A stretch of DNA of 40,233 nt from a virus (Duplodnaviria > Heunggongvirae > Uroviricota > Caudoviricetes): positions 1-40,233 of IMG/VR virus record IMGVR_UViG_2802429237_000003; one strand, written 5' to 3'. The position numbers and the translations under genes are program-made. The notes under the pieces are model-generated. The model was given only the letters and a program-made list of their open reading frames with translations, ran no database searches and had not been told where the DNA came from. Shown here piece by piece: positions 17,048 through 17,918 of the stretch. The number at the start of each line of letters is the position of its first letter. Position 1 is the first letter of the stretch.

Positions 17048-17139
17048 GATATGTTTCGGGAGGCACCCGACACCTCAAACCTTATAATGATAGCGTGTTC
17101 TTTATAGCCATTAACCGCCGTGTCAGGCGGTTTTTTTTG
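17048..17139 (+). repeat. repeated noncoding module, copy 1 (conserved core TTTCGGGAGGCACCCGACACCTCA, then intrinsic terminator)
   Basis: 24-nt core at 17055-17078 identical to core at 17828-17851; CCGCC(GTGTCA)GGCGG + T8 at 17116-17139. Confidence 0.7.
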
Positions 17140-17293
17140 CGTTGTGTGCTGTGATATAAAAATATCATATTTAATAATTACCAGAGAAACAAATTTGTTT
17201 GTATGTTGTCGCATATGTGTTGATTGTGCGTAAAAAATTCACAAAAAATAAGAACAAAAAGATAAATTTACATAACTTAACTTGATGTGTTAT

Positions 17294-17321
17294 TGCTCCT
17301 GCACCATTTAACCGTATTATC
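17294..17321 (+). promoter_or_regulatory. candidate promoter for the tRNA pair (TTGCTC, 16 bp, TATTAT) with AT-rich upstream element
   Basis: Hexamers ~60 bp upstream of tRNA-Thr; preceded by ~150 bp of very AT-rich sequence. Confidence 0.35.
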
Positions 17322-17380
17322 GAAAGTGGTTCTGAGGGGGCACTTGTTCACCGATGATATTGATTCCCTGAAGAACCAAT

Positions 17381-17456
17381 GCCGACTTAGCTCAGTAGGT
17401 AGAGCAACTGACTTGTAATCAGTAGGTCACCAGTTCGATTCCGGTAGTCGGCACCA
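17381..17456 (+). tRNA. tRNA-Thr (anticodon UGU)
   Basis: Cloverleaf by hand: acceptor GCCGACT/AGTCGGC, D-arm GCTCAGTAGGTAGAGC, anticodon stem ACTGA/TCAGT with loop CTTGTAA, T-arm with GTTCGATTC, 3' CCA; resembles E. coli thrU. Confidence 0.85.
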
Positions 17457-17459
17457 TAT

Positions 17460-17534
17460 GCGGGCATCGTATAATGGCTATTACCTCAGCCTTCCAAGCT
17501 GATGATACGGGTTCGATTCCCGTTGCCCGCTCCA
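17460..17534 (+). tRNA. tRNA-Gly (anticodon UCC)
   Basis: Acceptor GCGGGCA/TGCCCGC, anticodon loop CTTCCAA, T-loop GGTTCGATTCC, 3' CCA; near-identical to E. coli glyT as I recall it, with a compensatory change in the T-stem. Confidence 0.85.
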
Positions 17535-17820
17535 ACAGTAGACGAAATCTGGTTGTATTAGGCACTGACACATTGATATGTGGGGCGTTTTTCCTGATTC
17601 CTTACCGCGTCCTGTTCTGTAATATGTGATACAGGTTACAGTCCAGTGCCATTTTTTTACAATAATGGCATGGTGCATTGTCGGTGGAGATTTTGTATTT
17701 CCTGGCAGGGGCTGATGATGCACCATCCCGGTGTTGTAAATAACATCACAGAGGTGTTCCTCAGCGCGAGGGTGGTTTAAAGAGTCGGTTTAGCGGGAAA
17801 CCACAGTATCTGCTAACGGG

Positions 17821-17918
17821 TCAGGTATTTCGGGAGGCACCCGACACCTCAGTTTTACAACAATAAAAACAGCTTATATTTTGCATTGACCAACCGCCAC
17901 ACCAGGCGGTTTTTTTTT
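17821..17918 (+). repeat. repeated noncoding module, copy 2 (same 24-nt core, then intrinsic terminator)
   Basis: Core at 17828-17851; CCGCC(ACACCA)GGCGG + T9 at 17894-17918; two further terminator-like hairpins follow at ~17941-17962 and ~18041-18068. Confidence 0.7.

Follow-up and report, generated by a model that had tools for sequence, protein, structure and literature searches.

We examined a 40,233-nt stretch of Caudoviricetes DNA (IMG/VR record IMGVR_UViG_2802429237_000003, positions 1 to 40,233; hereafter the window) and found two related, structured RNA units of ~350 nt each in the non-coding stretch between its DNA methyltransferase and first holin genes. Unit 1 spans about 16798-17138 and unit 2 about 17561-17918. 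The units are a divergent, extended, tRNA-linked subtype of the known STnc100/PasD family of prophage small RNAs (sRNAs), missed by current annotation. We favour, with a probability of roughly 0.6, the reading that each unit is a gene for an STnc100/PasD-type structured sRNA in a late operon dependent on the antiterminator Q, and that its terminator additionally keeps the lysis genes shielded until Q acts. We expect an RNA of about 170-360 nt, its size being set by the position of the 5' end.

A preliminary description of this DNA had noted a repeated 24-nt core with a terminator on either side of a tRNA pair, and had taken the copies for two paralogous sRNA genes or duplicated cis-regulatory modules. 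The repeat is real. The identical 24-mer TTTCGGGAGGCACCCGACACCTCA has exactly two + strand sites in the window, 17054-17077 and 17828-17851, and 100 dinucleotide-preserving shuffles yielded no such match even with up to 3 mismatches tolerated. A near-identical CCGCC/GGCGG terminator lies behind each core, its stem beginning 35 nt (copy 1) or 40 nt (copy 2) downstream, and tRNA-Thr(UGU) and tRNA-Gly(UCC) do lie between the copies at 17381-17534. The interpretation held in part: the units are paralogous and specify a strand-specific structured RNA that covaries and belongs to a family with validated Hfq-associated sRNAs, but the family, the size and the bracketing of the tRNAs were misjudged. 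Instead of a core and terminator giving a transcript of 60-90 nt, each copy is a multidomain unit of ~350 nt. Direct- and inverted-repeat searches with pairwise alignment gave ~280 nt of homology, and relatives extend the units to ~350 nt.

The two units share ~52% identity overall, with 33-51% outside the core and terminator and 100% in the core. Despite this divergence, compensatory changes preserve a common fold in both units. With so little identity over the unit, the exact 24-mer reflects selection, not recent duplication. Judged by sequence, the units are old paralogues, since each copy has closer relatives elsewhere: loci L168 and L260 for copy 1 (92-95% identity), and L312, L300 and L302 for copy 2 (77-82%).

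A conserved multidomain fold

Relatives were gathered with BLAST and by scanning IMG/VR and genome collections for sequence patterns. An alignment of 21 non-redundant subtype sequences (A2) was folded with RNAalifold. The fold begins at the 5' end with a closed domain, T0. A long hairpin (P0) and a five-way junction (P1-P5) come next, and an A/U-rich linker leads from the junction to an intrinsic terminator. In the window the parts are as follows.

16798..16876, + strand: T0 domain of unit 1; GGCACTG (16798-16804) pairs with CAGTGCT (16863-16869) in the minimum free energy fold, with inner hairpins, then TATTTTT
16877..16956, + strand: P0 of unit 1; 17+5 bp with a variable apical part; inverted repeat I2, 17 nt, 100% complementary
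16970..17079, + strand: junction P1-P5 of unit 1; P1 at 16972-16977/17071-17076, P5 at 17056-17070
17054..17077, + strand: copy 1 of the 24-mer; hairpin P5 (U-CGGG-AGGCA-CCCG-A) plus the 3' strand of P1
17078..17112, + strand: linker of unit 1; A/U-rich, unpaired in the consensus and in the single-sequence fold
17113..17138, + strand: intrinsic terminator of unit 1; stem AACCGCC-GTGTCA-GGCGGTT at 17113-17132 (7 bp, 6-nt loop), then T8
17561..17658, + strand: T0 domain of unit 2; GGCACTG (17561-17567) pairs with CAGTGCC (17644-17650), then A and T7; overlaps a promoter-like site
17660..17736, + strand: P0 of unit 2; inverted repeat I1, with additional pairs that stretch the hairpin to 17653-17743
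17749..17853, + strand: junction P1-P5 of unit 2; P1 at 17751-17756/17845-17850, P5 at 17830-17844; holds the 24-mer
17828..17851, + strand: copy 2 of the 24-mer, inside the junction of unit 2
17852..17891, + strand: linker of unit 2; A/U-rich, unpaired
17892..17918, + strand: intrinsic terminator of unit 2; stem AACCGCC-ACACCA-GGCGGTT at 17892-17911 (7 bp, 6-nt loop), then T9

The consensus helices in A2 are P0 (17+5 bp), P1 (6 bp), P2 (4 bp), P3 (6 bp), P4 (7 bp), P5 (5 bp, the core hairpin) and, behind the unpaired linker, the terminator (6 bp). P1 closes the five-way junction, and P5, UCGGG-AGGCA-CCCGA, is its invariant hairpin. Over the 56 pairs of A2, 97.5% of cells are paired, versus 39-52% when partners are slid, and 20 pairs show compensatory changes, versus 2-7 in the slid controls; none of 500 shuffles reached these pairing and compensation values. 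Within P0 (helices 1 and 2 of A2) pairing is 92-97%, and 8 pairs change in a compensatory manner. Outside the RNAalifold helices, T0 recurs among relatives as GGCACTG/CAGTGCY, with A-U, G-U or G-C as the first pair, enclosing a domain of 80-100 nt with a covarying inner hairpin and followed by a U-run. Single-sequence folds regain T0, P0, the junction and the terminator in both units, with z-scores of -3.5 and -4.7.

Many of the pairs in A2 are G-U, which the opposite strand would read as A-C. The structure therefore belongs to a transcript of the + strand, the direction of the late genes.

The junctions (16972-17076 and 17751-17850) have a cloverleaf-like layout, with a 2-nt linker after P1, a 4-bp P2, one long arm and a 5-bp P5 that abuts the 3' strand of P1. 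A tRNA model at E<=10 and ARAGORN found only the two genuine tRNAs; the likeness of the junction to a cloverleaf is one of topology alone. The P2 loop (GUGC) could in principle kiss the P5 loop (GCAC), but this interaction is unsupported, as the P2 loop varies (GCGC, GGGC, GAGC) while P5 is invariant. Nor did inspection of GGCUGAUGAUGC in P0 match the arrangement required of a kink-turn or C/D-box.

Relationship to STnc100 and PasD

An Rfam scan, one of the checks that the preliminary description had proposed, returned only the two tRNAs at curated thresholds and STnc100 (RF02076; gathering score 47 bits) in E-value mode. Rfam repeat families gave no match in the window. Unit 1 scored 36.0 bits (E=1.6e-6, covering 16943-17140) and unit 2 29.9 bits (E=5.9e-5, covering 17723-17922), both aligning to the model end to end (positions 1-206). 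The core, which the preliminary description had not recognized from known phage or E. coli RNA families, aligns at these sub-cut-off scores to the most conserved segment of STnc100, CCGGGAGGCACCCGGCACC (model positions about 126-146).

Several further traits join the units to this family. In both copies the core hairpin UCGGG-AGGCA-CCCGA is followed by CACC, where STnc100 has CCGGG-AGGCA-CCCGG and then CACC. Both encode a terminator a few tens of nucleotides past P1, and both have a P2-P5 body enclosed by P1 that covaries in the subtype, as given above, and family-wide. Like STnc100, the subtype combines a P1-closed P1-P5 body with an invariant hairpin and core (CCGGGAGGCACCCGGCACC versus UUCGGGAGGCACCCGACACC), an unpaired linker and a Rho-independent terminator. 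It also shares the late-gene strand and a site in lambdoid prophages that follows Q/PR' and precedes the lysis genes, often behind phage tRNAs; in the window the units likewise lie between Q and the lysis genes.

We also searched in the reverse direction with R1, a covariance model built from the subtype junction alone. In the window R1 found only two sites, at 115.6 bits (unit 2) and 86.8 bits (unit 1), the next best scoring 13 bits, and it recovered Rfam-called STnc100 sites at loci L199, L176, L041, L145 and L160. A family-wide alignment of 74 sequences derived from R1 has 94.5% of junction cells paired, versus 37-45% when slid, and 23 of 28 pairs are compensatory. None of the nine other subtype loci passed the RF02076 cut-off, whereas classical loci fetched with the core passed it at 63-175 bits.

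The subtype differs from classical STnc100 in the closing pair of P5 (U-A versus C-G) and in P1 (GAGGUG/CACCUC versus AUGGUG/CACCAU). Many classical members have a promoter of the form TTGACy, 17-nt spacer, TAnnnT that ends a few nucleotides before P1; the subtype has P0 in this place, with T0 ahead of it. The Rfam definition of the family does not include such a promoter. A TATAAT is present at copy 1, without a -35 element. The subtype is also distinguished by its fixed distance to a tRNA-Thr/tRNA-Gly pair. In two IMG/VR contigs (L145 342-1038; L160 1702-2340), classical STnc100 genes follow one another head to tail in threes or fours at a period of 253 nt, all with Rfam scores of 63-74 bits.

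PasD RNAs share with the units a location after Q and before a holin gene. They also have the P1/P2 start (GCAUGGUGAAUCCUCC...) in common with the units and, at the 3' side, a linker that leads to a terminator. They differ in having lost most of the core hairpin (CGGGAGGC-GCCAUGC), in having their own promoter, and in lacking P0, T0 and adjacent tRNAs. At the PasD2 locus the promoter, the shared P1/P2 start and a truncated core are all visible, and the linker holds the published seed UGUGAG immediately ahead of the terminator. R1 gave no match at E<=1 in the PasD1 and PasD2 loci, and the likeness of PasD2 was seen by eye only; the relationship of the subtype to PasD is therefore indirect, through STnc100. 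A preprint relates PasD to STnc100 (bioRxiv 10.64898/2026.05.13.724894).

The anti-sRNAs AgvB and AsxR, convergent partners in the prophage sRNA dyads of enterohaemorrhagic E. coli (EHEC), have a late-region moron site in common with the subtype. Classical loci have an AgvB-type RNA on the opposite strand immediately past the STnc100 terminator (L199 7266-7327; L155 3051-3110), the published convergent dyad. In the window Rfam gave no AgvB or AsxR match, and the unit terminators are without the upstream A-run of a bidirectional terminator. The linker of unit 2 holds UACAACAAUAAAAACA at 17854-17870, a C/A-rich sequence resembling the GcvB-target-like sequence of AgvB; the match is only 7 nt long.

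Proposed function

By analogy with STnc100, EcOnc27 and PasD, the likeliest function of the units is that of an Hfq-associated small RNA. STnc100 is transcribed in EHEC EDL933, which has 11 copies, one of them verified by Northern blot (PMC5331693). In Stx2 phages an STnc100 copy just downstream of stx2B overlaps the Hfq-bound EcOnc27/sRNA103 (PMC12711010, PMC4104026, PMC7873438). PasD1 and PasD2 of enteropathogenic E. coli E2348/69 are sRNAs found by RIL-seq and detected by Northern blot, and Hfq-dependent stability is reported for the Pas set (PMC8550237). The T8 and T9 tails behind an A/U-rich linker are features compatible with Hfq binding.

In a lysogen, the units would be transcribed from promoters of the cassette, either the tRNA promoter with read-through of T0 or weak sites. 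A promoter scan found two such weak promoter-like sites, 16679-16706 and 17635-17663 (GTTACA, 17-nt spacer, TACAAT). Transcription would halt at the unit terminator to give a stable RNA, protected by its folded body, and the variable linker and U-tail would bind Hfq and form base pairs in trans with target RNAs. The linker is the candidate pairing region because the PasD seed UGUGAG occupies the equivalent position; since the linkers of units 1 and 2 differ (~44% identity), the two copies would differ in their targets. The unit terminators, together with two more before the holin gene, would keep moron-driven transcription from the lysis genes, and after induction Q-modified RNA polymerase would read through all of these. 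In the most speculative step, P0, with ~22 bp of double-stranded RNA, may serve as a site of RNase III-type processing, by which the sRNA would be released from a precursor.

A number of observations weigh against this interpretation. Both copies fall below the RF02076 cut-off, the reciprocal R1 search is partly circular because loci were gathered with a 16-mer of the core, and the family-wide alignment is model-fitted. The subtype has no conserved sigma-70 promoter abutting P1, the A2 consensus containing neither a -10 nor a -35. T0 and its U-run could stop tRNA transcripts before P0, leaving the units of most relatives without an obvious promoter. A search of the window for complementarity of at least 12 nt between the units and possible targets gave matches at chance level and to terminator tails, none of them convincing. 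Expression and Hfq binding are known from relatives only, and classical STnc100 itself is without an established function or mechanism. Finally, typical Hfq sRNAs are less elaborate than a five-way junction with an invariant hairpin, a hint that the RNA has some other partner, in addition to Hfq or instead of it.

The tRNA cassette and alternative roles

The two tRNAs of the window are ~98.7% identical to the chromosomal E. coli tRNA-Thr and tRNA-Gly genes of a tRNA-Tyr/Thr/Gly cluster.

17381-17456, + strand: tRNA-Thr(UGU), by ARAGORN and Rfam tRNA (73.8 bits)
17460-17534, + strand: tRNA-Gly(UCC), by ARAGORN and Rfam tRNA (64.4 bits)

Such tRNAs are a regular companion of the subtype. In 84 of 105 subtype elements a tRNA lies no more than 1.5 kb upstream, nearly always as the tRNA-Thr and tRNA-Gly pair, and 88 of the 105 have lysis genes at most 4 kb downstream. 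The unit normally lies about 110-130 nt downstream of the pair, with the 3' end of tRNA-Gly 296-304 nt ahead of the core. The cassette is found behind either a Q82-type Q or a DUF1133 protein, and ahead of either a holin8 or an essD/rrrD lysis module. Given this position in 84 of 105 relatives, unit 2 appears to be the canonical trailer of a mobile cassette of tRNA-Thr and tRNA-Gly. Unit 1, a rare further paralogue, has no tRNAs upstream. A unit ahead of the tRNAs occurs only in the window, L168 and L260, and the bracketing that the preliminary description emphasized is therefore no general design. A remnant of the tRNA-Thr 5' end at 16760-16786, which would mark a cassette ahead of copy 1 that had lost its tRNAs, is no more than suggestive: its local alignment score of 23 is not significant, shuffles having a mean of 19 and reaching 32. 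Multi-copy arrangements recur in the family, with pairs 484 nt apart in several contigs. In L260, the one other contig in which two units flank the tRNAs, isrK lies 1.5 kb upstream (L260 665-863) together with a C4 antisense RNA, the P1/P7-type immunity RNA, and the a1/b1 targets of that RNA.

Very few relatives came from phage GenBank records; IMG/VR and E. coli genomes supplied them. A 16-mer scan of genome contigs gave matches that were largely due to chance, in high-GC genomes. Many relatives have a DUF1133 protein in the Q position (L001 2830-3366; L002 3257-3799), with a promoter-like site and terminator behind it, which suggests that this protein is an antiterminator analogue.

The location of unit 2 recalls 3'ETS-leuZ, which Lalaouna et al. 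in 2015 reportedly described as a regulatory RNA that is cleaved out of the trailer at the 3' end of a tRNA operon. Like that RNA, unit 2 stands directly behind the last tRNA of a small tRNA operon and has a strong terminator with a long U-tail. It differs in being much larger and highly structured; T0 may also part the unit from the tRNAs, and the family includes free-standing genes. The trailer position is held by unit 2 and by 84 of 105 relatives, but the T0 helix and U-run could end transcripts earlier, and unit 1 has no tRNA upstream. The preliminary description had allowed that the core might be spacer of a tRNA operon without RNA function. The first half of that caveat is apt, since the unit is the trailer of a tRNA cassette; the second is not, as covariation shows selection at the RNA level.

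The trailer position raises the question of whether the unit is mainly a cis-acting RNA of the tRNA cassette and late operon, serving as a folded 3' trailer in processing or in stabilization of the phage tRNA precursor and upstream mRNA, or in protein binding through the junction and invariant hairpin, with the terminator as an output that insulates the lysis genes. We regard this as unlikely. In its favour are the nearly fixed site behind the tRNA pair, P0 as a long double-stranded hairpin where relatives carry a promoter, junction helices that abut without spacers, the invariant sequence of a hairpin loop, and the stacked terminators ahead of the holin gene. Reviews, moreover, find no clear reason why sRNA genes should stand between the late promoter and the lysis genes (PMC7873438). 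Against a primarily cis-acting role, classical members with strong promoters of their own, without tRNAs and in tandem arrays fit independent RNA genes, RIL-seq chimeras join Hfq-binding relatives to many mRNAs, and copy 1 has no tRNA upstream. The cis-acting and trans-acting sRNA roles are mutually compatible.

A more doubtful proposal is that the junction and its UCGGG-AGGCA-CCCGA hairpin form a ligand- or protein-binding module that travels with phage tRNA cassettes. Such a module could, for instance, bring in or sequester a host factor for RNA processing or translation, or it could act in cis on how the phage tRNAs and late transcript mature or how stable they are. P0 and T0 would then be dedicated processing and termination modules, and STnc100-type RNAs a widespread class of structured RNA with an unrecognized biochemical function.

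We consider it very improbable that the repeats are DNA-level features, either a recombination-promoting boundary of mosaic modules or a selfish repeat, with incidental hairpins. The cassette does sit between differing Q-position genes and lysis modules, as at a mosaic joint, and decayed copies occur in about 500 E. coli genomes. But compensatory double changes keep seven helices, the many G-U pairs suit one strand only, conservation peaks in the hairpin rather than running as flat identity, and relatives are expressed RNAs. A REP/ERIC-type repeat, which the preliminary description had considered, does not fit the distribution: BLAST with unit 2 matched 858 of 5426 complete E. coli genomes, the median being a single place in each, and the inspected contexts are prophage late regions. 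Many of these matches are partial or decayed. The 548 records at 60-80% identity to unit 2 include decayed copies without the 5' half of the core. One decayed unit (L002 4001-4252, E. coli 13KWH46; ~68% identity) has the 5' half of the core deleted and lies ~200 nt past the DUF1133 gene of a defective prophage, adjoined by TolA-like genes and IS3; similar copies are present in ~500 other E. coli genomes.

Position in the late operon

The open reading frame (ORF) list and Pfam identify the window as the late-control region of a lambdoid prophage, with genes on the + strand in the following order.

Upstream of Q, + strand: DUF968 protein, then RusA
14296..14991, + strand: Q, the late-gene antiterminator, Q82-type (Pfam PF06323, E=8.9e-85)
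14975..15080, + strand: candidate PR', leader and tR'; -35 TTGCAA at 14975-14980, 17-nt spacer, -10 TACATT at 14998-15003
15058-15073, + strand: candidate tR' hairpin, CCCGC/GCGGG, with T7 to 15080
After Q, + strand: small ORF, then DNA methyltransferase (15553-16599)
16600-18086: non-coding stretch of 1.5 kb between methyltransferase and first holin
17940..18068, + strand: two terminator-like hairpins, 17940-17957 and 18047-18062, each with a T-run (terminator scan)
18087..18479, + strand: first lysis gene, a holin (PF16931)
After the non-coding stretch, + strand: lysis genes, comprising two holins and a GH108 lysozyme

A 1491-nt stretch of the window is identical in the chromosome of E. coli AH19B041, where the two tRNAs are the sole annotation between methylase and holin. 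The large terminase is truncated in the AH19B041 annotation (L340 8743-10491), with an integrase next to it; the window has it intact as a 585-aa ORF (20842-22599), and the two sequences may differ outside the compared 1491 nt.

The candidate site at 14975-15080 is probably the true PR'/tR', judging by its layout. Its promoter overlaps the end of Q and its leader would be ~70 nt, and a like layout of promoter and terminator follows the Q-position gene in L001 and L002. A -10-like GATATT lies ~5-10 nt past the predicted start of the leader and could be a sigma-dependent pause element. With PR'/tR' at 14975-15080, both units would be inside the late operon, not at its start.

The PR'-tR' leaders StxS and lambda 6S RNA resemble the subtype units as prophage late-region RNAs with a terminator overridden by Q. 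They differ in starting at PR' beside Q, a role that in the window fits 14975-15080, whose leader is similar in size to StxS and which lies 1.8-2.6 kb upstream of the units. This comparison bears on the idea that each unit is itself a late promoter with a Q-utilization site, leader and tR' (a duplicated PR', like lambda 6S/StxS), or else a put-like antitermination RNA. Units are terminator-ended and lie between Q and the lysis genes, in some relatives (L002) only ~200 nt past the Q-position gene. Nevertheless, the promoter-like site and terminator at 14975-15080, with equivalents in L001 and L002, lie directly behind Q; the units start 1.8 and 2.6 kb further downstream and have no conserved promoter inside. 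One RNA family also accompanies unrelated Q families, though Q-binding sites are Q-specific, and the units bear no resemblance to the two-stem put RNA in a phage that encodes Q. Position and anatomy led us to reject both versions, which keep only a very small probability.

Least credible of all is that the P0 stretches encode small peptides (ATG at 16887 and 17670; MTHCR.../MVHCR...): the ORFs across P0 share M-x-H-C-R and L-M-M-x-H in both copies, yet they have no Shine-Dalgarno sequence, differences between copies are non-synonymous while base pairs are kept, and E. coli 042, whose element is at 1549938-1550210, has an in-frame stop after 15 codons with the hairpin kept, so that we rejected this idea for want of ORF conservation.

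Three consecutive terminators, that of unit 2 and the two listed above, stand between the tRNAs and the holin gene. The non-coding segment at 17966-18075 ahead of the holin has two hairpins, AAGGCAT...TGCCTT and GGGCC-GCTG-GTGGCCC, each with a T-run. The segment is conserved ahead of a different holin (essD) in E. coli 042, at ~85% by eye, with a mean column identity of 76% over the whole alignment. It may be another small RNA, in a position like that described for PasA/PasC beside the holin.

Significance

STnc100-type RNAs are among the commonest non-coding elements of enterobacterial prophages, and an association with clinical outcome has been made for variants of the stx2-adjacent copy. 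The family extends beyond its Rfam model, as every tested subtype locus scores below the cut-off, and the conserved unit is larger than annotated, with T0 and P0 outside or at the edge of RF02076. One branch of the family is physically coupled to a mobile tRNA-Thr/tRNA-Gly cassette. The results offer an improved seed alignment for annotation and a structural model for mutagenesis. Overall, they lead to the testable idea that in lysogens moron or tRNA transcripts give rise to these RNAs, whose terminators meanwhile guard the lysis genes.

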